40,949 bases of DNA. It comes from Vermamoeba vermiformis. Taxonomy: Eukaryota. Where the stretch lies: the NCBI GenBank assembly GCA_045837725.1, contig JBEWZL010000274.1, positions 1 through 40,949 of the forward strand, read 5' to 3'. Position numbers and translations under genes: made by a program. The notes beneath the pieces were generated by a model. That model was not told where the DNA came from, made no database searches, and worked only from the letters and a program-made list of their open reading frames with translations. This document shows positions 4,432 through 32,952 of the stretch, piece after piece (position 1 is the stretch's first letter; each line of letters opens with the position of its first letter).

Positions 4432-4505
4432 GGCCGTTTAGCTCAGTTGGTTAGAGCATCGTGCTAATAACGCGAGGGTCCCAGGTTCGATCCCTGGAAT
4501 GGCCA
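4432..4505 (+). tRNA. tRNA-Ile(AAT)
   Basis: Acceptor GGCCGTT/AATGGCC, D arm GCTC/GAGC, anticodon arm TCGTG-CT AAT AA-CGCGA, T arm CCAGG-TTCGATC-CCTGG, oligo-T terminator. Confidence 0.97.
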
Positions 4506-17174: not shown

Positions 17175-20100
17175 ATGAAATATTATAAACGTAAGTTAAT
17201 AGTTGATTATTAAGTGCTGTTCTAACTGGTCTGTAGTCCCGATCGCGTTGATTATTTATCTGGCTTTGACCTGTCAGCTCCTCACGGAAGGTAAATATTA
17301 GAAAATAGTATTATAATATTAACGCATATTATAGGATGTTTTGTCGACCAGTTTTTGTTACCGCACAACGCGATCTTGCCCACCATGGCAGTTGTTGGTG
17401 AAAATATTTTATTTGCCGGTGGATACATTGATAACCAACAGACACCCACAAATATAATCGATATTTATAACCCAACTACGAATAGATGGACCGTACATAC
17501 AATGTTCAAAGCCCGAGAAGGAATGACAGCTGCAGTAGTCGGATCAACCTTGCTCCTTGCTGGCGGATGGGAAAAATCTTCCTGGAACGATAATCAATTA
17601 GTCAGATCAAGTTTAGTGGAGATTATTGACTTTCAAAAGAACATTTCGTGGATGGCACATCTGAATTCCACTCGCCAAATTTCAGCTGTTGCTGCTGGAG
17701 GAAAAGTCTTATTTTACGACAAAGCGTCACAAATTACAACAATAGATATATTTGACTTAGCGTCGAACACGTCAGAAGTTGTGCAACGAGGATTTTACTG
17801 GACCGCATCTGCAGTTGGCAACGACATTCATTTCTTTACAAATTCAGAAGTAGATATTTATCATCCATCAAATAACACATGGACCAGCGAATCCCTCGGA
17901 ATAGACATTTTGGGAGATATAATTGACTCCTTTGTAATCAAAGGTGACATTTATTTGATCACTGCACGGAGCATATTTATACGAAGATACGGAACGACCA
18001 GATGGCAGCTAATCAGCTTAGGCTTCGGCCATATTAGCTACCGTCTCGTCCACTATGACGTGCTATATATGATGGTTGGCCCTAGTCGCACTAAGATCAA
18101 CACCGTGTTCACTTTGGACGGCCTAACGGGCAAACAACTTTCATGGGACTACGAGCCATACAACTTTGGCATTGAAGGCAGTGTTATCGCACATCAAGAC
18201 AAGCTCTATTTCGTTGGTTGGTCTGCTAATGCTATTCAACGAGTGTTCCCACAAGTGCTCGTGTACGATGCCATTGACACGCGTCATCGATTAGTCGCAT
18301 TGCCGAAGGACGACTATCAACTTCAACAAATGCACGAGCACAGAGGAAAGCTCTTTCTTGTCAACCGTGAAGCAGTGTCGCCATCAGCCTTCGTCTACGA
18401 CCTGTTGCTTGACAGCTGGCACTCGGTCGACTTTGATGACCCGAGAAGTGGCGTTATGATCACTTCTTCTGGCAACCAAGTCGTGTTCTACGGAGGAACG
18501 TACAGCCCATACAACGCATCCAAGTCGGTCCATGTCTACAACACTGACACGGATCTTTGGGCCCACTACAAAACCAGCGTGTCGGGCAAATTCGCCGTCG
18601 TGCGCAATGGTTGGCTCATTTTCTATGGCAACATTTACGGAGAACCAACACCGCACGTGGACGTATTTAACATACAATCTGAGACCTGGACAGCACACTC
18701 GTTAACTAATTCAGCGTCCGACTACTTCACGGTGATATTCGACACTAAAGTAGCGCTATTGGCAAAAGATGTCATCACGAGCATTGACGTTTTTGACACG
18801 TCAACTCAGCTATGGACCGAGTTCTACCTTCAAACACCGCGCTCTGATTTCACGCACATCTCAATCAACGGCATGATTTATATAGCCTGTGGCATCACTC
18901 TGGATCCAATGGCCTTCACAAACTCGCTCGAAGCATACGACTTGAAGTCACTGCAATTCGTTTTCGAGCGAAATCTCTCTGACGCCCGTGCCAAGCCCGT
19001 GGCTGCCGTGTCATTCCCATACGTTGTATTCGCTTGTGGGTCTCGCAATGGATTCCCGGTGTCTGCTATAGACGTGTACAACATGGAAGATGACACGTTA
19101 CGACAAACGACTTTCAGACGTCCAGAACTCATTGGATCCGATTTTGGTATTGCATCTGTTGGCGACACAATGTACATTAGATACAACAACTACTTATGGA
19201 TGCTTCGGCTGCGCACTCTCGAGCTGACACAACCTGTCGCTACGCCGTTCATGGCTGGCGGACGAAATTTCGCTATTGGAAACAACCTCGTCTTCTACGG
19301 CCAATCGGATTTTCTGGAAGTGTTTTATTTCTGGGAAACTACGACTAACGAGCACTTTCAAATGGCCACGCCGTACCTCAGCGAGTACACGCAGTCCACA
19401 TTAGTATGGAAGAACTTTTTGGTCATATATTTGGGGGATCTCGTCATCATCGAACTTTCAACCGTCTGGACAGGCCTCACAGACCGTGATTTGTTCATTG
19501 GTGAGACGACGACACTGGCTGTGGACGCTGTTGGCAATGGCCTCGAGTACTTTTGGTACCACGAGAACACCAAGCTCGAGGAAGTGCGTCCGTTCTTGTT
19601 TTTGAACACGAGCTCGCCTGATTTCAGAGAGGGCCGTTACTGGTTGGCGATCAAGGACCACTGTCGCTCGTACATGGAGTTGTACTCAAGAGTTGAACTG
19701 CTTGGTCCACCGACTTTCGAGTCACAATTGGACAATCGTACTGTGCTTTGTAACGCCACAGCCCTTTTGTTCCAGCTCAATACGGACGGCAGAAATGTCA
19801 GCTTGGATTGGACGATCAACAACGAACACAGAAGTAGCGTTGTCAACTCGACTTTTGTCCTGGATCTGCGCCCGCTCACATGCGACTCAACCAATCAGCT
19901 CTGTGCCACAGCAACGAACCCGTCAGGTTCTGTCAGCACGTGCAGTAACATTCACCTGGCTAGCTTAGGATCTATATTTAATGGTCCAAGAATGTCACCT
20001 GAACTGCAACTTCGATCGGTCGGCTCGTACGTCACACTTCGTGTTGACATATTGGATGACAGGTGCAAAAATCATACCTGGTTCGTTGACTCTGAAGAGC

Positions 20101-21715
20101 TAGGCTCGTTCGAGGCTTCATTCAGCGAGCTTGAAGTCCAGTTGGAGCGAAACGTAGAAAGTCAGAGATACATCGTGACCACGACATGCGATGGCTCGAA
20201 TTTGATGTCCGCGCCACTTATCATCACTTTGTCACCTTTGCCGGCGTGGGGTCTGGCCGCCATTGTGATTCTCGGTGCCGGTATTATTGGCGGTGCAATT
20301 GCCGCGGGTGTCATTGTTCGACGAAGATTCAAGCAGGGCAAAAAGCAAGAAGTCGAGTTGAAGACAATGCTCAACAAGGCTAAGCAAGAGGTCCTGACCA
20401 AGAACGGCACCACGATTATCAGCACAACGAGTTGGGAATGGTCGCCTGATGACGAGCACATGTTCTGTCCTATCGACAAGTTGCCTGTCACCATCGACTT
20501 GTCAAACCTCGGCTTCAATCTGAGTGACCCTATTGAAGTCAATATTTGGACTCAAGGCACCATTGTCATTTCGTCCAAGAAGGCCTCAAAGAGTGCACTG
20601 CCGTTCTCATCATTATTGCACCAAAGTCTCATTGATGACGAGATTGATATCTACGTGCCGAAGTCGCCAAAGTACGAGCTAGAAGTCAATCCTCTGTCAT
20701 TCAGGGTCTCTGACGGATCAGTTACAACTCTCAACGTCTCAGCGATGATGAAAATGACGACTAAGGCGAAGATTCCGCTCGTCATCGTGATGGAAAAGAA
20801 GAAAATTTATTCGTCGATTGACTTGGTCTTGCGAAGCAAACCATCGCCTTGGATCGATCTTGACAAGGTCAAACTGACTGGTGAAGTACTTGGCCAGGGA
20901 GGGTAAGTTGACGCAATGCTTTATTCTTCAAAGTTATTAATCGTGTTTGTAGATTTGGTGTCGTTAAGCGAGGTGTCTACAAAGGCCAAGATGTCGCTGT
21001 CAAATTGCTCTTGACGCAAGATTTGATCGACGAGACGAAGAAAGAATTTGAGCGAGAAGTGTCACTCATGAAGAACTTGCATCACCCGAATATTATTCAG
21101 TTCATCGGTGCCTCTAACGTCGAAGGCAAGCTCGCCTTGGTCACGGAGTTTGCGCCGCTTGGAAGTCTTGGAACGCTGTTGGAACGAGAGTTCATCCCGT
21201 ACAACATCAAACTTGTGATCGTGCTCGAGATTGCTCGTGCTATCAAGTTCCTTCATTCGAACAATATCATCCATAGAGACGTCAAACCACAGAACATCCT
21301 CGTGTTTTCGCTCGAGCCCAAAGCCACTGTTCACGTCAAACTGACCGATTTTGGCACGTCAAAGTTCGTGCCTGACACGTCCTCTGTTAACATGACAAAG
21401 TATACTGGCACAGCGAAGTACATGGCCCCCGAGACCTTCGGTGTGGATCCACGATTCACGCTCAGCGCAGACATTTACAGCTTTGGCTTGTTAGTATGGG
21501 AAGTCATCACAGGCCAGGATGCATTCTCGGAGAAACAATACATGTGGCAATCAAAAATCGAAGAATTCGTATTGTCTGGAAAGAGAATGCCTATCCCTGA
21601 AGAAATGGACCCTCGACTAGCCTCAATTATCGAACAATGTTGGGGCCAAGATCCGGCAAAGCGCCCGTCCATGACTCACGTAATTCAACAACTTTCAGCA
21701 CTTGTGTACGGATAA
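17175..21715 (+). CDS. Single-pass receptor kinase 1: signal peptide, Kelch-like repeats, Ig-like domains, TM, TKL kinase
   Basis: Signal MKYYKLPIALIIYLALTCQLLTEG from two small exons. Repeats ILFAGG..IDIYN..W. TM WGLAAIVILGAGIIGGAIAAGVIV-RRR. Kinase LGQGG|FGVV, VAVK, HRDVKPQN, KLTDFG, YMAPE. Confidence 0.92.
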
Positions 21716-22897: not shown

Positions 22898-25800
22898 TTA
22901 TTTAATATTCGACAGTCGTTGTACAAGAACGTTAATTGAAGGACGTTGTTTTGGTTCGTGTTGCCAGCAATCTTCAATCAGTTTCACCAACGATGCATCG
23001 ATATCGTGTCCATGAGGGAATGGAAGTCGATTGCCTGATTTGACGTGTTGTTCGATGTCTGAGTCCCATTTGAAATCTTTGAACGGCACTTGTTCGAACA
23101 ACACTGACCACATCAGCACTGCAAAACTGTAAACATCTGCACTCTTGTCAATGCGTGGATTGCGACCGAGTGCTTCTGGTGCCATGAATGCAATTGTACC
23201 AACGTTCTTTGTGATCGTTGTGGGGTCATCAGCGATGAACCGTGATGTGCCAAAGTCAGTCAGTTTCACATGCACTGCTGCTCTTGTCTCGAGTGAGAAC
23301 ACGAGAATGTTTTGAGGCTTGATGTCGCGATGAATCACTCCGTTCGAGTGAAGGAACTGCAATGCTTTGGCAGTCTCCAACAAGCACATCACTTTGAACT
23401 GAACTGACAGCGACTGTTTCTCCATCACACTTGCAAGACTGCCAAGAGGTGCGTACTCGATCACAATTGCCAAACTCTCTGTGACATTCGATGCACCAAC
23501 GAACTGAACAATGTTGGGATGTCGCAAGCTCTTCATCAGTGTCACTTCTCGCTCGAACTCGATCTTCATATCATCAGTCAGATATTGACTCAGAAGCTTC
23601 TTCACAGCTACTTCTTGACCTCGATACACTCCTCGCACAACTGAACCGAATCTACAACAAAGTGTCAGTCCGTGTCAAAGTGTCAAAGATGTCATTCCGT
23701 GTCAACTTACCCTCCACCTCCAAGGAACTCTCCACTCATTTCAATCTCTTCAAGATCGATCCACGTTGACATCTTGCTGTCAAGTTTGAACTCGATGGCT
23801 GAGTAGATCTTTTGTTGTTCGAGAACAACGATCAGAACCACTTTGCATCTCGTTGTCATTCTCATTCGCACTGACACTGTCACTGAGTGCGATTCACCTC
23901 CTTCAAGGTACAATGTCTCGGGCTCAACAGTCACTTCGTACTTGGGTGATTGAGGTGCGTAAATGTCAATCTTCGTTCCTGAGATGAGCTTCTCTGTCAA
24001 GATGGTCGACTTCTTGGTCTTCTTTGGTGTTCGCGATGATATTTGAAGCTCTTTGTTGAAGTTCATCTCGATATCAAGTGGCTCTCCTTTCTCAACGAAC
24101 TTCAGCTGTGAGGTATCGATATCGACAGGGAGACTGTCAAGTGACTTGTATGAGAAGTCTTCGCTTGGTTTCCATTGCCATGTTGTCTTGTTGATGATCG
24201 GCATCGATTCTTTCATCAACGAGTCAGTCTTTGCATTGGAGAGGAGTGCTGAGAGTTCAACTTCTTTGTCTTGGCTTTGATTCAGTTTCTTGCGTTGCAG
24301 CACGACGACGACAATGAACACTGCAACACCCAAGAACACACCAATGACCAACAACACAACACCGTAAACTGGAAGTGGTGACACTTGTTCGAAACTGAAT
24401 CTGCGTGACTCGATGAGACTGTTGCCACATGTTGCAACAACGTAGTATTGATACGTGGCCATTGAAGGTGACAACTCGACTGAGAATGTGCTGCTTCGTG
24501 TTTCTGCTTGTGTCACATTCACTCCGTTAACATACCACACATGACTCGTGCAGGTTTGTTCCAGGATATCTACACTCAGCTCCACGGTTGTATTGGAGAA
24601 CCATGTTGGTGGAGTCGTTGATGGAAGTGGTCCTCTGATCACTGAGTCAAGTTCGAGCATCTTCACTCTTGCACACGATTGTGTCTGGCCTGATGGATTG
24701 GATGCGTACGCACACACCAACGCGCGAGTGTTGCACGGCATGTGACTGGTTGATATGCTTAAAGTGGGAGAGGAGTTGGTATCAACTGTCACTCCGTCAA
24801 TGGTCCACGTGTACTCCACAGCCACGCCATTGGCTTCAATCGGAAGCTCCTCCACACGATCACACAAGGCTACAGAGTCTTTCAATGGAACACTGAACAT
24901 TGGCACATCGTGAACTGTCAGTCTCGCTTGGTGAACAATGTGAAAGTTGCAATGATCGAGCATGTCAACACGATACATTCCGTCTGAGTGCATTGTCACA
25001 TTGTCGAGGATCAGTGCGGGATTGCCATCTTGAATGGCTTGCCCTTCGTGGGTCCATTGATATCGTAGTGGAGGACCTGCAGTGGTCACTGTGAGGTTGG
25101 TTGATTGGCCAATGAATAGCTCCTTGCCGTTGAACCCTTCGAGCAAGGTCGATAACGGCATTACGTAAGGTGTCGTGCGTTCTACGTTGACAAAAAGATA
25201 GTTCGAAACTGTGCCAATCAACGAGTCAATAGATGGTAACGTAAGGAAGGTCCAGTCTCCTGTTGTAACTTCGTAGATTGTGACGGTGACGATGCCTACG
25301 CCAGGCGGATGTGATTGTACAATAAGCTTCGAGCCCAAAGTGGTCATTGTAGCTAAGTCGGAGACTGGGAAAGGAAGTGTTGTGATGGCGCCAGTCTTGA
25401 CATCGACTGCATCGATTGTAATTGACCGGCCAATGAATAGTTTGTCGCCAATTGCTGCTAGTATCACTCTGTTTGAGTACAATGTGCGAGGCAGCACAAC
25501 AGATCTCCACGTAAGGCTAGTTGTGTCGAACAACTCCACGGGTTGAGTCTGCGTCAAGCTCAGTCCTGTAAAGGCTGCGTAGTTGCCAACCACTGCCATT
25601 TGTAGTCTTGACATAGGTGCTGCGAATTGGTGTGTTCTGATGTTGCTACTCCGAACATCAATCGTGTACGCCAAGTCTCCGTCCATTCGCGTTGCAAAAA
25701 GAACGTAATTAGCCGCATGAATCGAAGTCCATTGTCCATTAATGGGAAACTCGCGCAACGCTCTTCTTTCCACAACGTCGTATAGAACAACGCTGGATGA

Positions 25801-27406
25801 AGCTAGCACGGCCAAAATATTGTCCTTGTACAGGGTGGCGTGTAGTGCGGCAAGAGGCACTGTGGTTAAACTGTTTTCATTGATATCGAACAAATGAATG
25901 GTAAGCGTGGCCAGACCCTGTGTCACGCTCATAAAGGCCACTAAATCTCCAAAAGCTACGGCAGCTTGGACTGTGTTAATGGGCAAGTCTATGATGTCCA
26001 CGCTCTGACTATCAAAGTCGTATAAAAAAACTGAAACTTGTCCAATGAACTGCGATACATAGGCGAGCTTGTGTTCCATTAGAACGTAAATAGGATTCTG
26101 GCTACGAAATCTGTCTCCAGCTGCTGGGTGCACTGCCAAACTTCTCGAGTTGAAGTCGTACGTGGTGATGCTTGGCTCTTGAAAGAAGAATATAACGTCG
26201 CGCGATATGAAAGTGGCACGTGTCGAGAGTGTCAGAAGCGGCGTAAGTGTATAGCGTGTGTTGAACACGGAAAATTGTCCGTTGTCAAGTCTCGCGAATA
26301 TCATTCCGTTTGCAGCAGCTGACATATCAAAATTGGTATTCAGCGGCAAGTTGTGCTGTATTTCCAATTCCAAGAACGGATCAATGATGGTGTAACCTGA
26401 GCCAATCCGATAAATCTTCTGATTTATAACGACTGTCGCTGTCGCACTGCGTGCTCTACTTTGTCGATACATGTAGGTGATGGTGTTGCCGGTTGTTGTT
26501 GAATAAAGAACGGCTCGCCTTGGTCCAAGAAAATAAACAAATCCATCCGAATAAATGACTTGAAGTGTTGCAGCCACGTTCATGACCACATCCGATATTG
26601 TCAGGGTCTCCAAGTCAACAATATAGATCATATCGCCAGTTCTTGTAATTAAAAATGCGTGAGTTTCGTTGGTCGCTCCTACATAATATGGATTTATGGA
26701 TCTTGTTTCTAGCGGTGTAAACTCCAACGTTGTTAAATCAAGTAGTAACGGTGGTACTATTGGTGTAGTTTCGTGAGCATTTCCAAATATGATCGCCTTG
26801 GACTGTCCCATAATGACTCTATTATATCGATATTGTTCAGGGATTAGAATGCTTGTCAAGCTGTCACTGTTCAGATCGTAGATCTCAATAACTCTGCTAT
26901 CAACATTAGATTCGCCTATTCCTCCGACAAATATTATTTTTGAGCCAGATGAGTCAGCTGAAATACGCCTTCGTGGTTGAGTGAGGTTGAAATGGGTCCA
27001 TTCACGGGTGGAAGTGTCAAACACGGCCCCCTCAGAAGAGAGTTTGTTGTTGCCATCTATTCCACCAGCGAATAATACTTTATCTCCTGATGCAACCAGT
27101 GTTATCTCTCTTCTTTGATTTGGTAGTGACAAGGGTAAAAAGCAACCTAAAAATTACCAGATGAGCTACTCCGATCGCAATAATTAGGAATCGCCGATAC
27201 AAATTTGCTGTGCCTTTAAATAAATAATTTGCAAATAATCCAGGGGTCACAAAATTATCGAATCCATTTTTTTGTTTGGATCTGCTTACCACTCGACAAA
27301 GGCAACAATAATAAACATGCCACTACGAATATTATTATAGTGTCGCCTAAAAGTATATTATAATTAGAAGCTCCAGTTTAACTTCACACCGTCACTGACC
27401 TGTCAT
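22898..27406 (-). CDS. Single-pass receptor kinase 2, paralog of 17175-21715
   Basis: Signal MTGDTIIIFVVACLLLLPLSSG from two small exons. ORF 23707-27132 with Kelch-like/Ig region and TM YGVVLLVIGVFLGVAVFIVVVVL-QRKK. Kinase exon with VAVK, HRDIKPQN, KLTDFG, FMAPE. Same intron positions as the paralog. Confidence 0.92.
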
Positions 27407-27548
27407 CCTGCAGCTTTGACTTTTATCAATAATAATATGTCTCGCATATGTACGACATCTAATACGGTTGCTTTGGTGTTGTAGAAATCTTAATAAAAAT
27501 GATTTGTATTTTTTGGTCTAATTTTTTCCTTCCCAGTGCCAGTACTAT

Positions 27549-30500
27549 TTATTTGCTTTCCTCTTTTGGTTTGGCAACGATATTATCATTTGCTGTAGTT
27601 GCAGCCTTTTCGTCATTTTGCGCCAGTTGAGCCAAATTGACGTGCGCCAAAAGATTAGCCGAAGTGCTCTGATGGTGATGATAAGCCGCGTCGTTCATCG
27701 AAGGAATAGGTGCTTTGTCAGGGTGCACCGTTTTCAAATGGAAACTAAACGGTCTGTACGAGGCATCATCTTGCGGTCGAGATCTGCATTGAGATTCAGT
27801 TAGCAGCTGCTAATTGCACTTGCTTAAGCTCGGGTGACTTACCTCATCAAGTCGACGACGGGGATAAGATGCTCCCATCGTTGTTTCTTGGGCACACGAC
27901 GCTTGAAGTCCATATTCGGAATCAGATCTGCGAACGGAATAAACTCGAAATCACCTCCGTTGATGCCAATTGCGCCAAACAACTCTTTGCCCGACTTGAA
28001 ATATTCGTCCATTTTATCGACAGCGTATTGGGCAAACTCAGCGCCACGAAGGCGGTCCATTGGCGAAGGCGAATAGCCCTAGTTAATGTTAGAACATATG
28101 AAATCCGTGAATGACACGCACCTGTTGCAAGTGACCAAGGATAGTGTGACGCACGTCAAAGAAGCCTTTGCCCTCTTCAGTAAAGATTTTCGACAAGATG
28201 TCAGTTGTGTAAGTCTCGCTCGCCCTCTCGCTGTTAATGACCAAGCTCGTCGTCTTGCACATTTTGAATCTCTTTTTCATGCGGTCGACGTCATCAGCCA
28301 ATTGTCGTAGAGTAATGCCGTGTTCAGGAGTGTAACATAACTGTGCACCACCAGCGATGGAGCCACAAATGCCCAAATAGCCGCAGTTGCCACCCATGAC
28401 TTCCATAATGAAGACACGAGCACGCGATGCCACGGCACTCAGCTTGACTTTATCGGCACTCTAGTGATGGTGGTCAATGCTGCGTTGATATAAAATGATA
28501 AGGCTTACTTCGACAATGCAGTTCAAGGCTGTGTCAGATCCGATAGACACGTCAGTTCCCGGCACGTTGTTGCTGACAGTAGCAGGAACGCAAATGATGG
28601 GAATGTTGAATTCAGGGTACTTCTCTTTGTTCTTGTGAAGGGCAATGGCTGCAGCATAACCTTCCCAACCACCGATAAGCAGCATTCCCTATCAAAGTAT
28701 TAGCCAACCGAAGACTGTATATCTTCCGGCTTACCTTTATCTCGTATTGCTTGAAGCACTTGGCAATCTTTTCAAACTCCTCGTCTGTGCTTGGGATAGT
28801 CCTGTTTGTACCTAACAAAGAGCCACCAATGTTTGACCAGCTATTCGAAGTTGGGATCAGATGTGGTGCACGTGCTATTTTTGGAACTTACCCGTTCACA
28901 CTGAGCCATTGAAGCTCTTCAGGCGCGTCACCTCCATCGAGGATATCTTTAATTCCGTTGTAGAGAGCCATCGGTCGGTAACCCTTGTTGATCAGCATTC
29001 TCGTAGCACAACGAACGGCGCTGTTCATGCCGGGCGCAGGAGCTCCAATGTGGGTGATAGCAATTGCAGGTTTCTAAATGCAATTAGCTATATACTATAT
29101 AATAAGAGCGTGGCGTACCTTGACAGAATCAGGCAAAATGACCGGAGCAGATCGAGTCAAAACAAAAAGCGTCTTCAAAGCATTGTTGAATACTGGTCCG
29201 CGTAGCTGCATAGCCTTCTCGTATTCTCCGTCGCGAATTGCCTGGCCAATTGATTGAGTCTACATAACGAACCGTTAGAGCTCATCCGGAAGATCTTCGT
29301 CGATCCATAAAAAAAGATTAACAAGCTGTTTAGCTAGAGCCCTCGAGACAAAAAATCGAAGGAATAAAAGCAAAAAAGAGAAGAGCACAACACCTCCGAT
29401 TCCCAGGTAGTCTCCTACCCCAGTACTAAGAAGGCCTGAATAAGCTTAACTTCGCTGATCGGACGGGAAGCGGTGCATTCTTGTTAGTGTGGTCGTACCC
29501 GAGAGCGACTGCAACATCGTGTTCGGGTCACTACTTGCGACCATTGGGTCGTGTTCTTACCATTTTTACGGCCTCCATCAAGTTGGATCGCACGACCTTG
29601 GATCCGCGAATACCAATCAACGTGTGTTGAAAGCCTGGTTTAGCGTCCAATATGGCTTCAACTGCCTCCATGCCCATTTGAGTGCTCTATGTGCCTCATT
29701 AATACTTGACCACTATTATGCCTATTATTACGTACCAACAGTCTGTCGTAGAAACATGGAGTGCCACCGCGCTGGATGTGACCCAAAATTGTGACACGTG
29801 CTTCCATCTTCAAATCTCCTTCAATAACGTCCTTCACTTCATTGGCTGTGATGATCTTTCCTTTCGTGTCACGTGCTCCTTCAGCGATGATAATGACGCT
29901 CATTCGCTTGCCGCGGTCACGGCCCTTCTGAACTGATTTGCACATCTTTTCTTTCCACGTCTCGTCGTTAGGGAACTCGGGCACGAGGACGTAATCACTG
30001 CCTGTGGCCAAACAAGCTGCAATAGCCTTAGATCTAGTCAGTCAAACACGCGCACTAACGCATGCATAAAAGTACTCACCAAATAACCACAATCGCGGCC
30101 CATAACTTCTACGACGAATGTGCGTTGATGTGAAGCAGCGGTAGTCATCAATGAGTCAATGCACTCGATAATTCGATGCAAGGCTGACGCTGCACCGATC
30201 GTCATATCTGTGCCCCACATGTCATTGTCAATTGAGCCAACCATACCAACTACATAGAAATTCTTTTGGTGTTCCTGCAAATATTACGAGCGTCAATTTC
30301 GTTTCGTCAATTACGCTACGCTGTGCGGATATCCGCACAAAGAAATATCACTTAAAACCACTCATTAATTTTGAACATTAGGCCTTCGGCTCTATGTTTA
30401 GTTTGCTTATTGTATTATATTTTGTTACTTACGTAGGAATATTTGGAAATTTTTCCTTCTTTGTACAATTCTTCGACGTACTCGGGCCATTCTCGACTCA

Positions 30501-31090
30501 AAATATCCGCGCCAGTCAAGCTGCCGTCACCACCAATGCACACTAAGCGGTCAATGCCAATTTCGAGTAAATTTTGTGCTGCTTTTTTGCGTCCTTCTCG
30601 TGTTCTAAATTCAGGGCAGCGAGACGTGCCAATCATCGTGCCTCCCTGAAGAAAATTTTTCAATTTTAGTTCCAGCGCGAGGACTATATTTGGTAAATTT
30701 GTAATGTCAAACACTCACTTTTTCTAAAAAGCCCGAGACATCGTCCCACATAAGCCGTCTAATGAAAGATCCACCGGATACCATGCCATTGTACCCTTCA
30801 AAAATTGCGTACGGCTCAGCGCCTTGAAATATTATTAGTACATATAATATTGGCAATATAGCGAAATAGCTGTCGATTATTATTGTATTTTACGAATATT
30901 TTCAAAAATTTTAGTTGGACTGGTCTTCAATCGCTTAGATACGACGTGCAAACGTACCTGACAATATTCCTCGACGAACAATAGCACGGACTGCTGCATT
31001 CATGCCAGAGCAATCGCCTCCGCTCGTCATAAAGCAAAACCGGATGGGTGGCTTCACCGACCCATCAGTGGCTTGTTGTTGCTGTGCCAT
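27549..31090 (-). CDS. PFK: ATP-dependent 6-phosphofructokinase, eukaryotic two-domain type, multi-exon
   Basis: [57 protein letters not shown]. Second half [30 protein letters not shown]. Confidence 0.96.
29382..29500 (-). rRNA. 5S rRNA gene inside PFK intron 29260-29560
   Basis: Reverse complement reads GGGTACGACCACACTAACAAGAATGCACCGCTTCCCGTCCGATCAGCGAAGTTAAGC...TTAGTACTGGGGTAGGAGACTACCTGGGAATCGGAGGTGTTGTGCTCT, 119 nt. Helix I closes, box A and box C motifs are present, and a T6 terminator follows. Confidence 0.96.
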
Positions 31091-31282
31091 CGTAAAGATA
31101 TGAGTACTAATATCTTACTACAATGTGTTAATAAATTTTAAATGATAATTGTCGGTCTCAAAATTAATTTTACCGTTTTAGAAGTCGCGGCTTAACTGGA
31201 TCGTGACTTAATTGTTGGTAACGTGAAAAACGAGTTTTGTGGTACTTGTGTGTATAATAAGAAGTAGTGAACCACATATAAA

Positions 31283-32952
31283 ATGGTATTTATCGTAGAA
31301 TAATTAATTTGGCCGAGTAGCATAATTGTCGAAGATAATCTGTGTGGATTTTAGATTCGACTGTTTTAGTCAATAATCTGTGCAACGATTAATTAGATTG
31401 TATTATAGATTCGCCCTCTCTTATTAAAAGGTCACGAGAAGTCGATCACTCAAATCGCTTACAACCGCGAAGGAGATTTGCTGTTCTCAGCTAGCAGAGC
31501 CGAGTTTATCACCGTATGGTGGGCTGACAATGGTGAACGTATTGGTACTTATCACGGTCACAATGGTGCTGTTTGGTTCCTTGATGTTTCTCGTATCCTT
31601 TTATTCCAACCATTTTATTAAGATCGAAAAATTACAATAATTATTATATTTTTTCCTTGACCTTCTAAAATTACAGAGGATTCAAAGAGACTGTTGACTT
31701 GCTCAGCAGATAGCAGTGCTAAAATTTGGAACGTTGAAAATGGCAGAGAACTTGCTCACTTCCCTCACCGGTAAGATCCGATCTGAAAATTTTCTCTGCT
31801 CGTTATAATTCACCAATGCCTCGATGCTTATATTTTCGAATATATAGATACCCTGTAAGAAGCTGCGGTTGGGGTCATGGAGCAAAAATGTTTTTGACAG
31901 CGACAGATCAAGTCATGGGTGCTACTCCCGTGATCAGTCTTTTCAAAGTTGCTGATGATCCTCGAGATCGTAAGTGTTATTTTATATAATTATTTAGTAA
32001 GATCAACGTGTATTAATGCGGCACTTAAAGAAAACGACACTCCCATCCGCGAAATTCCTGGCCCTGGTTTGCACAAGATCTACCACGCTGTTTTTGGCCC
32101 TAACAACGAGACTATTTATACTTGCAACGAAGACGGTACTATCAGAGTTTACGACACTGAGGTAAGGCTTTCATTTTCGTAAACTGGATCCACTCATTCG
32201 ATAAAATTTCCTCGTTTGCATTTTCACTAACAAATTGATAATACATAGACCGGCAAACAAACCAACGTTGTTACCGTGCACAAGAAGGCCGTGAACAGAA
32301 TGCAATTCGACAAATACCAATTAACTTTCATTACCGCTAGCAGAGACGGTACTGCTCGTTTGTTTGACACTAAGAGCTTGCAAAATTTGAAGACTTACGA
32401 CGCTGGTCGACCTGTCAACGCTGCTAGCATGTCATCGATTAAGGACCACGTAAGTACCTCACTTTGACACGCAGCGTAACCATTCATAATTCACTGAACA
32501 AATCGCCGTACCTCAATAATTATCAACACTGCCACCTATAATATTATTATGCCTATACGATATTGTTAATTATATTAGTTATTGAGTGAGGATATCGAAA
32601 AGTTGCGAGTGCGCGTGGATCTAGTTCTAACGAAATTTTGTTGTAGATTATTCTTGGAGGAGGAGAAGCAGCTATTAATGTAACCTTGACCAAGTTGGAC
32701 ACTACTCAATTCAAGACTCGATTCTTCCACAAGATCTACGAAACTGAATTGGGCTCATTGATGGGTCACTTCGGTCCTGTCAACGCTTTGACATTCAGTC
32801 CTGACGGCAAGGGCTTTGCTTCAGGAGGAGAAGACGGTTACGTCAGATTGCATCACTTTGACCAGAGCTACTACGAGCCTGATGACGACGAGACTTGGAG
32901 CCCTGCTCGCGAGATGAACTTTGGTACCACCATTAACAATAAGGACGCTTAA
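31283..32952 (+). CDS. EIF3I: Translation initiation factor eIF3 subunit i (WD40), multi-exon
   Basis: [28 protein letters not shown]...[16 protein letters not shown]...FITASRD...[33 protein letters not shown]. Confidence 0.96.
31593..31676 (+). other. U12-type (minor spliceosome) GT-AG intron in eIF3i
   Basis: 5' site GTATCCTTT, branch site TTTTCCTTGAC with A at 31660, 16 nt before the end of the CAG acceptor, no polypyrimidine tract. Splicing restores [16 protein letters not shown]. Confidence 0.9.

Follow-up and report, generated by a model that had tools for sequence, protein, structure and literature searches.

A 5S rRNA gene with its own upstream element and terminators in a phosphofructokinase intron, one of hundreds of dispersed copies in a protist

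Few organisms are known in which 5S rRNA genes are scattered through the genome. Acanthamoeba castellanii, Neurospora crassa and Schizosaccharomyces pombe carry scattered 5S gene families according to the available part of one account (PMC1635290), and about 100 dispersed 5S copies are given for S. osmophilus in the accessible text of another (PMC10085805). The family described here resembles these in consisting of many single 5S genes with unrelated flanks, outside arrays and rDNA units, as separate Pol III units; unlike them, it has an upstream element and tandem 55-60-nt modules that are specific to the present lineage. One more lineage, probably amoebozoan, can be added to this small group; its 5S-specific upstream element is defined here. 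Yarrowia lipolytica, as far as the consulted portion of the source goes, combines scattered 5S genes outside the rDNA with dicistronic tRNA-5S genes (PMC2566860). Here too, some copies are close to tRNA genes (loci L011 and L016 of a sister lineage), but the tRNA-5S distance is ~260-280 nt, the 5S gene still has its upstream element, and nothing points to a fusion transcript.

Pol III genes are also known from the introns of Pol II genes. In Caenorhabditis elegans, 44% of tRNA genes lie in introns, as chance predicts, and 56% share the orientation of their host; both an influence of host promoters on the intronic genes and their conservation across species have been demonstrated, as given in the available text (PMC4999229). 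The present case is similar in that entire Pol III genes, promoters included, are situated inside Pol II introns, and differs in that these are 5S genes rather than tRNA genes with a type 2 promoter. In mammals, an antisense SINE relic, the MIR in the first intron of Polr3e, has demonstrated Pol III occupancy and causes interference, according to the sections consulted (PMC5358760). It, too, places a Pol III unit within an intron of a Pol II gene, whereas the unit in the 6-phosphofructokinase (PFK) gene described below is a genuine, sense-oriented 5S gene, known here from sequence. In 5S-derived SINEs and the Cassandra TRIM, a 5S-like promoter head is joined to other sequence, with tails or LTRs (PMC10946416, available part). 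These elements also spread 5S-related sequence through genomes and often into genes; by contrast, the copies here are complete 119-nt 5S genes, ending in terminators, with neither tail, LTR nor target-site duplication. We considered and rejected a 5S-derived SINE or retroposed pseudogene, because the copies are complete, end at T-runs, have unrelated flanks directly outside the unit, carry untranscribed upstream sequence and have no flanking direct repeat. In the open-access literature searched we found no description of a spliceosomal intron that contains a 5S rRNA gene, which is not proof of absence. With the present case, 5S rRNA joins tRNAs and SINEs among the Pol III genes known to occur within introns of Pol II genes.

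The window, by which we mean the whole stretch of 40,949 bases that was analysed, contains the following features, given in the direction of transcription.

27549..31090, minus strand: PFK coding region, eukaryotic tandem-domain 6-phosphofructokinase, 13 exons and 12 introns; 3' end approximate
29561..29686, minus strand: PFK exon 6, 42 aa, ending ..EAVKM; TIGR02478 positions 298-338; human PFKL 313-354 (PDB chains)
29260..29560, minus strand: PFK intron 6, host of the 5S gene, 301 nt, GTAAGA..TGTAG, phase 0
29522..29536, minus strand: core of the 5S upstream element, AAGTAGTGACCCGAA, about -36 to -22 from the 5S +1
29382..29500, minus strand: 5S rRNA gene, 119 nt, full length; RF00001, 99.2 bits
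29372..29377, minus strand: first oligo-T run (T6), presumed Pol III terminator, 4 nt beyond the 5S end
29350..29355, minus strand: second T6 run, 22 nt past the first, in a near-repeat (13 nt) of the terminator motif
29309..29315, minus strand: T7 run, downstream of both T6 runs
29280-29274, minus strand: CTCTAAC, branch-like motif of intron 6; branch site suggested by the motif
29119..29259, minus strand: PFK exon 7, 47 aa, starting TQSIG..; TIGR02478 positions 340-375, weak when taken alone (E 0.051)

The original prediction, made from the letters of this stretch, described a complete 5S gene in sense orientation within a PFK intron, 60 nt after the donor, and these points are borne out. 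In a search of the whole window with Rfam, the model RF00001 covers 29500..29382 on the minus strand, the strand of PFK, over model positions 1-120, with 99.2 bits (gathering score 38, E 1.2e-20), and the 5S start reads 60 nt past the GTAAGA at 29560. The same search found no second 5S gene, tandem array or rDNA elsewhere in the 40,949 bases, in agreement with the claim that none lay nearby. For the putative internal promoter boxes of the original prediction, what is seen is a good fit of the sequence to the family consensus; the minimum free energy fold of this single sequence gives a z of -0.9, with 33 of 200 shuffles equally good.

The host intron is equally well defined. Twelve PFK exons tile the 744 positions of NCBIfam TIGR02478 without a break: residues 1-41 of the 42 in exon 6 correspond to positions 298-338, and exon 7 begins at 340. 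The end of exon 6 corresponds to human PFKL residue 354, and the computed spliced product aligns with a relative of 779 aa (P0002) free of gaps across residues 354|355. Exon 7 alone is too short a query and gave no match among PDB sequences. In run X6, a transcript-type contig passes directly from 29259 to 29561 and skips exactly the 301 nt of 29260..29560, with CT..AC ends on the plus strand, and the 11 other splice joints of the gene are present in X6 contigs as well. Together with the profile and protein alignments, it confirms the predicted junction EAVKM|TQSIG as well as the exon boundaries, for which an RNA check had been proposed. Intron 6 is consequently a GT-AG spliceosomal intron by its ends, by its removal from the mRNA and by the restored reading frame. 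The intron lengths derived from the X6 joints are 59, 43, 48, 46, 51, 45, 301, 49, 53, 158, 73 and 135 nt; the 11 others thus range from 43 to 158 nt with a median of 51, and intron 6 is 5.9 times this median, matching the expected sixfold excess, yet two others measure 135 and 158 nt.

Upstream of the 5S gene lies a conserved element of roughly 20 nt, from about -38 to -18, which 5S copies of this lineage and of a sister lineage have in common. Its core, AAGTAGTGACCCGAA, matches once in the window, against 0.11 matches expected, and recurs at the same distance (offset -35/-36) in 17 of the 18 listed loci as well as in the window copy, where it is identical to the dominant form in the flanks of the RNA runs. 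The core was not found upstream of the two tRNA genes; the element is specific to 5S. Many 5S copies are preceded by two to four tandem modules of 55-60 nt, each composed of the upstream element and the first 2-6 bases of the 5S gene. Downstream, T-runs occur within a few nt of the 5S end in every other copy whose 3' flank is visible among the sister-lineage loci. Pol III termination at T-runs is established, and it is on this basis that we assign a terminator role to the T-runs of the window. The predicted oligo-T terminator of the gene corresponds to the T6 situated 4 nt past the 5S end, followed by the further T6 and the T7, its role being read from the sequence. Contigs of other 5S copies in DNA run X1 part from the window at 29536-29544 on one side and at 29364-29366 on the other, and these divergence points set the bounds of a shared unit, which at PFK spans ~179 nt (29544-29366). 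Since the copies have both an upstream element and T-run terminators, they would be self-contained Pol III units, and the window 5S is supported as a complete Pol III-type unit made up of upstream element, gene and terminators, as judged from these signals. Without this unit, intron 6 would measure about 122 nt.

The bin that holds the 5S gene reaches a word depth of 236,799 in run X1, versus ~230 on PFK, a ratio of ~1000-fold; the copy-number estimate rests on this word depth, which is not the same as copy number. From the same run, 206 contigs were matched to the window, mostly on the 5S gene, and their loose ends diverge. Further, 32 metagenome loci from a sister lineage have one 5S gene each, at ~28 distinct sites, with flanks that are unrelated beyond the unit; many of the metagenome contigs end at the 5S gene. 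By the X1 depth and the sister-lineage loci, this is a dispersed family, and a tandem array elsewhere in the source genome is possible. The PFK copy belongs to a scattered family of hundreds of 5S genes in this protist. The organism is probably amoebozoan-like, on weak evidence: the best named hit of an eIF3I exon was Planoprotostelium fungivorum at 64%, a homology search with PFK yielded no close relative with a name, and the protein atlas returned only bacterial clusters of PFK fragments.

Some of the other copies are intronic too. In the sister lineage, nine distinct sites have both flanks visible, and two of these hold the 5S gene in an intron in sense orientation (2/9, an intronic fraction that describes the sister lineage and not this genome). 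At L022, the host is a CFIm25-type gene, with NUDIX_2 profile positions 65-107 before the 5S gene and 144-188 after it, separated by an intron of ~640 nt. At L009, a HOOK gene encodes HOOK_N before the 5S gene and a coiled coil after it, and its GTAAGG..TATAG intron of ~590 nt keeps the frame. At L004, L011, L013 and L015, no family matched on both sides of the 5S gene: L004 and L013 were matchless, and the matches of L011 (His_Phos_1) and L015 (TPR_17) were one-sided. Among shorter frames, 0 of 85 matched. Other 5S copies, at L001 and L021/L030, appear to be intergenic, and have the upstream element and T-runs all the same. The predicted nesting of a Pol III unit within a glycolytic Pol II gene thus stands as anatomy, while the singularity that it implied does not, the 5S gene being highly repeated, dispersed and intronic elsewhere.

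We propose, with a probability of roughly 0.6, that the PFK 5S unit is a tolerated passenger copy in a pre-existing intron, possibly still transcribed, which leaves PFK unharmed. Hundreds of scattered 5S copies, several of them intronic, argue for a passenger and not for a special device, and the normal removal of intron 6 with the 5S gene inside argues that PFK takes no harm. Under this proposal, the protist would keep its 5S genes in scattered, self-contained Pol III units numbering in the hundreds, one of which, of ~179 nt, would have lodged in sense orientation in PFK intron 6 and enlarged it, probably arriving by a DNA-level insertion or duplication into an intron that already existed. 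Pol II, which is not halted by T-runs, would pass through the unit, and splicing would remove the intron normally with the 5S gene in it. The unit retains what its own transcription by Pol III would need, so that its use by Pol III is conceivable, and it would be neutral for PFK. The PFK-5S finding by itself reveals no new mechanism. Its value is that a bona fide 5S gene with promoter element and terminators can sit in an intron of a housekeeping gene with splicing undisturbed, that intronic 5S genes recur in a lineage with hundreds of scattered copies, and that these copies offer a natural system for asking whether co-directional intronic Pol III units are neutral.

It is possible, if clearly less probable, that the PFK copy is a dead one: an inactive 5S pseudogene in the making, unused by Pol III, which persists because an intron is a safe place. 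Compared with every other copy seen, it has private substitutions at two of its 119 positions, and each weakens a helix pair. U4 (29497) turns the C4-G115 pair into a U.G wobble, and A60 (29441) turns the C18-G60 pair into a C.A mismatch, the one non-standard pair (C18.A60) flagged by cmscan in an alignment that follows the consensus three-way-junction structure. In Xenopus numbering, A60 presumably falls within the stretch equivalent to box A of the internal control region. The Rfam score of the PFK copy is the lowest of 21 scored, the others ranging from 102.1 to 106.1, and one X1 contig, with a 48-nt internal deletion in its 5S gene, indicates that truncated copies exist in the same species. 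The window letter at 29441 was seen in none of 96 RNA reads (0/67 in run X21 and 0/29 in run X23), that at 29497 in 0/28 and 0/19 of them, respectively, and the X1 and X6 contigs assembled over the variant sites have the majority letters only. However, this absence from the reads is expected for one copy among ~1000, the read numbers being far too few to detect it. The raw RNA runs X21 and X23, possibly from another strain, have zero depth on all PFK exons and carry no information on PFK expression or on retention of the intron. Also against a dead copy are the full length and 99.2 bits of the gene, its intact terminators and an upstream core that matches the dominant form exactly; a divergence of two positions in 119 is one that expressed members of other dispersed families may also show. 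A difference from the expressed 5S, together with missing Pol III occupancy, had been named as the mark of a pseudogene, and the copy shows this in part, departing from the majority or expressed form at the two positions noted. The weakened helices suggest that this copy evolves uncorrected and may be on its way to becoming a pseudogene. For U4 and A60, both of C-to-T type at CpA, we also considered an origin by RIP-like change or deamination and dropped it, two sites being insufficient.

The remaining readings would give the copy a function, a different origin or no reality. That the 5S genes here form a self-propagating family, with the PFK copy as a fossil of that process, is doubtful: initiation at an upstream module would yield a transcript with a complete promoter module and the gene, up to the T-run; this RNA, if copied back into DNA, could seed promoter-equipped 5S genes anywhere, introns included, and the co-directional copies would be those tolerated. 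A regulatory nesting, in which intronic Pol III or TFIIIB tunes PFK by modulating chromatin or the passage of Pol II, or the PFK promoter tunes the 5S gene, and ribosome supply is coupled to glycolysis, we regard as unlikely. It draws on the interference of the Pol III-occupied Polr3e MIR with Pol II (PMC5358760, available part), the kind of scenario that the original prediction had raised as possible, and on the influence of host promoters on intronic tRNA genes in C. elegans (PMC4999229, available part), and all three resolved intronic copies (PFK, HOOK and CFIm25-type) are co-directional with their hosts, but three of three corresponds to p = 0.25 (two-sided), the hosts are unrelated, as random lodging predicts, PFK mRNA is spliced normally, and none of the 32 sister-lineage 5S loci contains PFK exons, so that no conserved pairing is seen there. 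Creation of the intron itself, through an introner-like event in which an element bearing the 5S gene landed in PFK coding sequence, would agree with a phase 0 intron of atypical length that is ~60% 5S unit. It is very unlikely, however, given that the ~122 nt outside the shared unit include the splice sites and the branch motif, that two other PFK introns reach 135 and 158 nt, that the repeat search found no target-site duplication or insertion scar around the unit, and that the splice sites of L022 and L009 are also far outside it.

The original prediction further raised an intron-derived 5S. In this reading, debranching and trimming of the excised PFK intron would release the 5S RNA in the manner of a snoRNA, independently of Pol III. 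The idea has also been raised for intronic tRNAs (PMC4999229, available part), and sense orientation in three of three intronic cases would suit it. We hold it to be highly improbable, since the copy has T-runs and an upstream element of its own at the usual distance from the gene, just as the apparently intergenic copies do, and no reads carry the U4 or A60 variants; these family-typical signals make such a route unnecessary. We know of no organism in which 5S rRNA matures from Pol II introns. The copy likewise does not qualify as a splicing-dependent intronic small RNA of snoRNA or mirtron type, to judge by its upstream element and terminators. An assembly chimera or contaminant 5S has next to no chance of accounting for the locus: repeats often misassemble, and the breaks of metagenome contigs at the 5S gene are a reminder of this, but an X1 DNA contig of 193 nt at single-copy depth extends from exon 7 across the acceptor and takes in the final 12 nt of the 5S gene, with 0 differences, and the transcript contig skips the intron exactly. 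The locus is upheld, and we retain the passenger reading.

A scan for bacterial-type promoters and terminators returned 0 and 0 sites and is irrelevant to a eukaryotic Pol III unit. The repeat search identified an 8-nt repeat inside the upstream part of the PFK 5S unit, along with the repeated terminator motif. At L026, the 5S gene looks to be upstream of an RFC-like gene, a placement that is tentative.

The 5S rRNA gene inside an intron of the phosphofructokinase (PFK) gene is real and well supported. The original prediction of a full 5S gene in this intron was right in every detail that could be checked against the Rfam model, the profile tiling, the protein alignment and the contigs. The two features are:

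~31090 to 27549, minus strand: coding segments of a eukaryotic tandem-domain 6-phosphofructokinase, from tiling of NCBIfam TIGR02478
29500..29382, minus strand: 5S rRNA gene of 119 nt, matched end to end by the Rfam 5S model

The 5S gene scores 99.2 bits (E 1.2e-20; gathering score 38) and is the sole 5S match within the window, where the remaining RNA genes are two tRNAs located at about 3.5 and 4.4 kb. Its family assignment rests on this covariance-model score, since folding the 119 nt as a single sequence gave an uninformative z of -0.9. The gene begins 60 nt downstream of the GTAAGA donor at 29560 and ends 122 nt upstream of the ..TGTAG acceptor, whose end is 29260; a branch-like CTCTAAC lies 15-21 nt upstream of the acceptor. 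A T6 run sits 4 nt past the 5S end, followed by a second T6 and then a T7. The 13-nt terminator motif that contains T6 recurs as a near-copy 22 nt downstream (window 29349-29383). In the sense direction the motif reads CTTCTCTTTTTTG and its repeat CTTCGATTTTTTG; the repeat resembles a reserve terminator or a short duplication.

The surrounding gene is equally well defined. Twelve PFK exon translations tile the 744 positions of TIGR02478 in order and free of gaps, with 41 of the 42 residues of exon 6 on positions 298-338 and exon 7 beginning at 340. Exon 6 ends at the equivalent of human PFKL residue 354 and of residue 344 in a yeast subunit; exon 7 alone, too short a query, had no match among solved structures. 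The spliced protein, built by coordinate-based joining of exons in a script, is 65% identical over 760 residues to the 779-aa full-length relative P0002, with one gap in all and none at the PFK 354|355 junction. In X6, a run with transcript-type contigs, a 765-nt contig holding several further joints passes from 29259 to 29561, skipping 301 nt (CT..AC on the plus strand). X6 contigs together carry all 11 other PFK splice joints, so that X6 contains spliced transcripts, and the intron boundaries hold in transcript data, with exactly 301 nt removed. The twelve introns measure 59, 43, 48, 46, 51, 45, 301, 49, 53, 158, 73 and 135 nt, so the 5S-bearing intron exceeds the median of the other eleven (51 nt) by a factor of 5.9. 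At the DNA level, a contig of single-copy depth from run X1 covers 29201-29393 with 0 differences, and the 3′ end of the 5S is thus physically linked to PFK exon 7. Over 27400-31300, X1 contigs of single-copy depth are of two kinds: some match the window exactly (0 differences in 193-214 nt, for instance), and others differ by about 2.6% (19 differences and 2 indels in 724 nt). This pattern points to two haplotypes or to strains related in a mosaic fashion.

This 5S gene belongs to a large dispersed family. Word depth in X1 reaches 236,799 in the 5S bin against about 230 along PFK, and most of the 206 X1 contigs placed fall on the 5S; summed word depth differs from copy number and guides magnitude only, pointing to hundreds to about a thousand copies. 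Contigs from other copies depart from the window sequence at 29536-29544 and 29364-29366. One X1 contig (depth 188) has a 5S without 48 internal bases, joined within window 29405-29454, so defective copies also occur in that genome. A stretch of 33 bases from the window 5S, used to scan metagenome contigs, matched 32 loci once each, many at contig ends. Merging duplicates (L004 with L006, L005 with L013, L021 with L030, and the closely similar L002 and L015) leaves about 28 sites, whose flanks have nothing in common outside the unit of upstream element, gene and terminators. At 5S position 25, 29 of the 30 loci covering it differ from the window, which marks the metagenome copies as a sister lineage.

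The 50 nt upstream of the 5S are conserved across metagenome copies. Their core, (C)AAGTAGTGACCYGAAYA, lies at about -38 to -18 and is common to these copies and the window copy at the same offset; its offset is -35 or -36 in 17 of the 18 listed loci and -78 in L016. It occurs once in the window, where 0.11 matches are expected by chance and 11 of 100 shuffles reach one, and is absent upstream of the window's two tRNA genes. Among reads of the raw RNA runs X21 and X23 that extend beyond the 5S at its 5′ end, the dominant flank bears the identical motif (19 reads, agreement 0.96, and 8 reads, 0.94, respectively). In some other eukaryotes 5S transcription depends on upstream elements, and by analogy with these the core is a putative Pol III promoter element. 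With upstream element, gene and terminators all present, the PFK copy is a complete member of the family.

Other copies also lie in introns. We scanned open frames against Pfam in the 10 metagenome loci with at least 500 nt on each side, representing 9 distinct sites, and two copies fell between exons:

L022, 1935-2053, plus strand: 5S between exons of a CFIm25-type gene
L009, 1516-1398, minus strand: 5S with HOOK_N on one side and HOOK coiled-coil exons on the other, all on this strand

In L022, NUDIX_2 profile positions 2-41, 65-107 and 144-188 match at 422-745, 1141-1308 and 2110-2343, all on the plus strand, and the intron, read from DNA, runs GTACGT..TGTACAG over about 640 nt. The L009 intron (GTAAGG..TTTATAG, about 590 nt) preserves the reading frame. 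The copies in L001 and L021/L030 look intergenic, and the one in L026 may sit upstream of an RFC-like gene; the frame scan identified no host gene around the 5S in L004, L011, L013 or L015, and a further scan of 85 shorter frames gave 0 matches. Thus an intronic position is demonstrable at 2 of 9 two-flank sites, and both copies share the sense orientation of the PFK copy; co-direction with the host in 3 of 3 is not significant. This rate would fit chance lodging in a genome dense with genes and rich in introns. It parallels the chance-level rate in the cited account of C. elegans tRNA genes, of which 44% are intronic, matching chance, and 56% co-directional with the host (PMC4999229). A special arrangement of PFK and 5S, as originally envisaged, is unsupported: the copy is one of very many, and others are intronic too.

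We favour, at a probability of roughly 0.6, a self-contained 5S unit that lodged in an already existing PFK intron, where Pol II would transcribe through it, splicing would remove it with the intron, PFK would be unharmed, and Pol III could probably still use the unit. Subtracting the ~179-nt unit leaves an intron of about 122 nt, a length comparable to those of the other long introns of PFK. The untranscribed upstream sequence in the copies and their lack of an A-tail argue against simple retroposition of mature 5S RNA. That insertion itself created the intron is quite improbable: neither the splice sites nor the branch motif belongs to the unit, and no target duplication was found. The bridging X1 contig and the splice of exactly 301 nt make misassembly scarcely credible. 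A 5S RNA freed from the excised intron is very improbable, since a copy with its own promoter-like element and terminators would not need that route. Regulatory coupling of Pol III and PFK transcription has precedents at Polr3e (PMC5358760) and in C. elegans (PMC4999229); the three host genes are unrelated to one another, and such coupling is unlikely here.

A PFK copy that is already silent is a possible, if tentative, alternative. Reads carry a letter other than the window's at 29441 (67/67 in X21, 29/29 in X23) and at 29497 (28/28 and 19/19), as does the entire contig depth there in X1 and X6. The metagenome copies covering these positions match the reads, with C at position 4 in 26/26 loci and G at position 60 in 31/31, counts that cover about 28 independent sites. 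In RNA sense, U4 of the window copy replaces a C-G pair of helix I with a U.G wobble, and A60 replaces a C-G pair of helix II with a C.A mismatch (flagged by cmscan). Its 99.2 bits are the lowest of 21 scored copies, the rest reaching 102.1-106.1. The original prediction took divergence from expressed 5S, together with a lack of Pol III occupancy, as the mark of a pseudogene; U4 and A60 supply the divergence, but death of the copy does not follow, because one copy among ~1000 is undetectable in fewer than 100 reads. X21 and X23, which share the species label of X1, leave every PFK exon (27400-31300) without reads, yet cover the 5S, and may therefore come from a different strain. Many of their 5S reads continue into heterogeneous flanking sequence; such reads may derive from 5S copies that form part of longer transcripts, or from another strain.

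One account treats scattered 5S genes as rare and names Neurospora, S. pombe and Acanthamoeba (PMC1635290). A recent review terms 5S dispersal 'very occasional', and the mobile 5S-related DNA that it lists is confined to 5S-derived SINEs and Cassandra elements (PMC10946416). tRNA genes are a well-documented case of Pol III genes within Pol II introns (PMC4999229), and a MIR element is reported as another such unit (PMC5358760). None of the open-access texts searched describes a spliceosomal intron that harbours a 5S rRNA gene. Intronic 5S pseudogenes are common in mammalian annotations. The PFK copy joins two known classes, dispersed 5S families and intronic Pol III genes.

Elsewhere in the window lie genes for cohesin SA, MIOS and Kelch-Ig-TM-kinase receptors, and a neighbouring eIF3I exon whose best named match is Planoprotostelium fungivorum (64%; plants about 57%). 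This match tentatively suggests an amoebozoan, and the other genes are not at odds with such a placement. Two paralogous genes, tail to tail, adjoin PFK:

17295-21712, plus strand: Kelch-repeat and protein kinase gene
22901-27153, minus strand: gene with Kelch repeats, Ig-like domain, hydrophobic stretch and protein kinase

Both have a large Kelch-repeat region and then a kinase domain, a plan that appears receptor-kinase-like; the Ig-like domain and hydrophobic stretch before the kinase are reported for the minus-strand paralogue.

The most unusual observation is separate from the original finding and present in both lineages. Upstream of many metagenome 5S copies stand 2-4 tandem modules of 55 nt, each comprising the upstream element and the first 6 bases of 5S (GGGCAC or GGGTAC), the distal one often shortened to begin at the conserved core:

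L022:1731-1934: tandem modules
L009:1517-1730, minus strand: tandem modules
L003 and L011: tandem modules, 4 each

In the window's species, one X1 DNA contig has a like plan (joint 29536->29499), with a module of ~60 nt made of the upstream block, the first 2 bases of 5S and, after them, 22 other letters. The PFK copy carries just one module. The modules could reflect unequal recombination or a route to promoter-carrying transcripts. In two loci a tRNA gene lies 257-283 nt from the 5S copy:

L011, 322-393, 660-733 and 1016-1134: two tRNA genes and a 5S within ~800 nt
L016, 13-131 and 388-461: 5S and tRNA

The tRNA has an Rfam score equal to that of the window tRNA-Ile (4432-4505) and is 95-97% identical to it in DNA. 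The L011 group lies directly downstream of a histidine-phosphatase exon and may be a compact cluster of Pol III genes, perhaps inside another gene.
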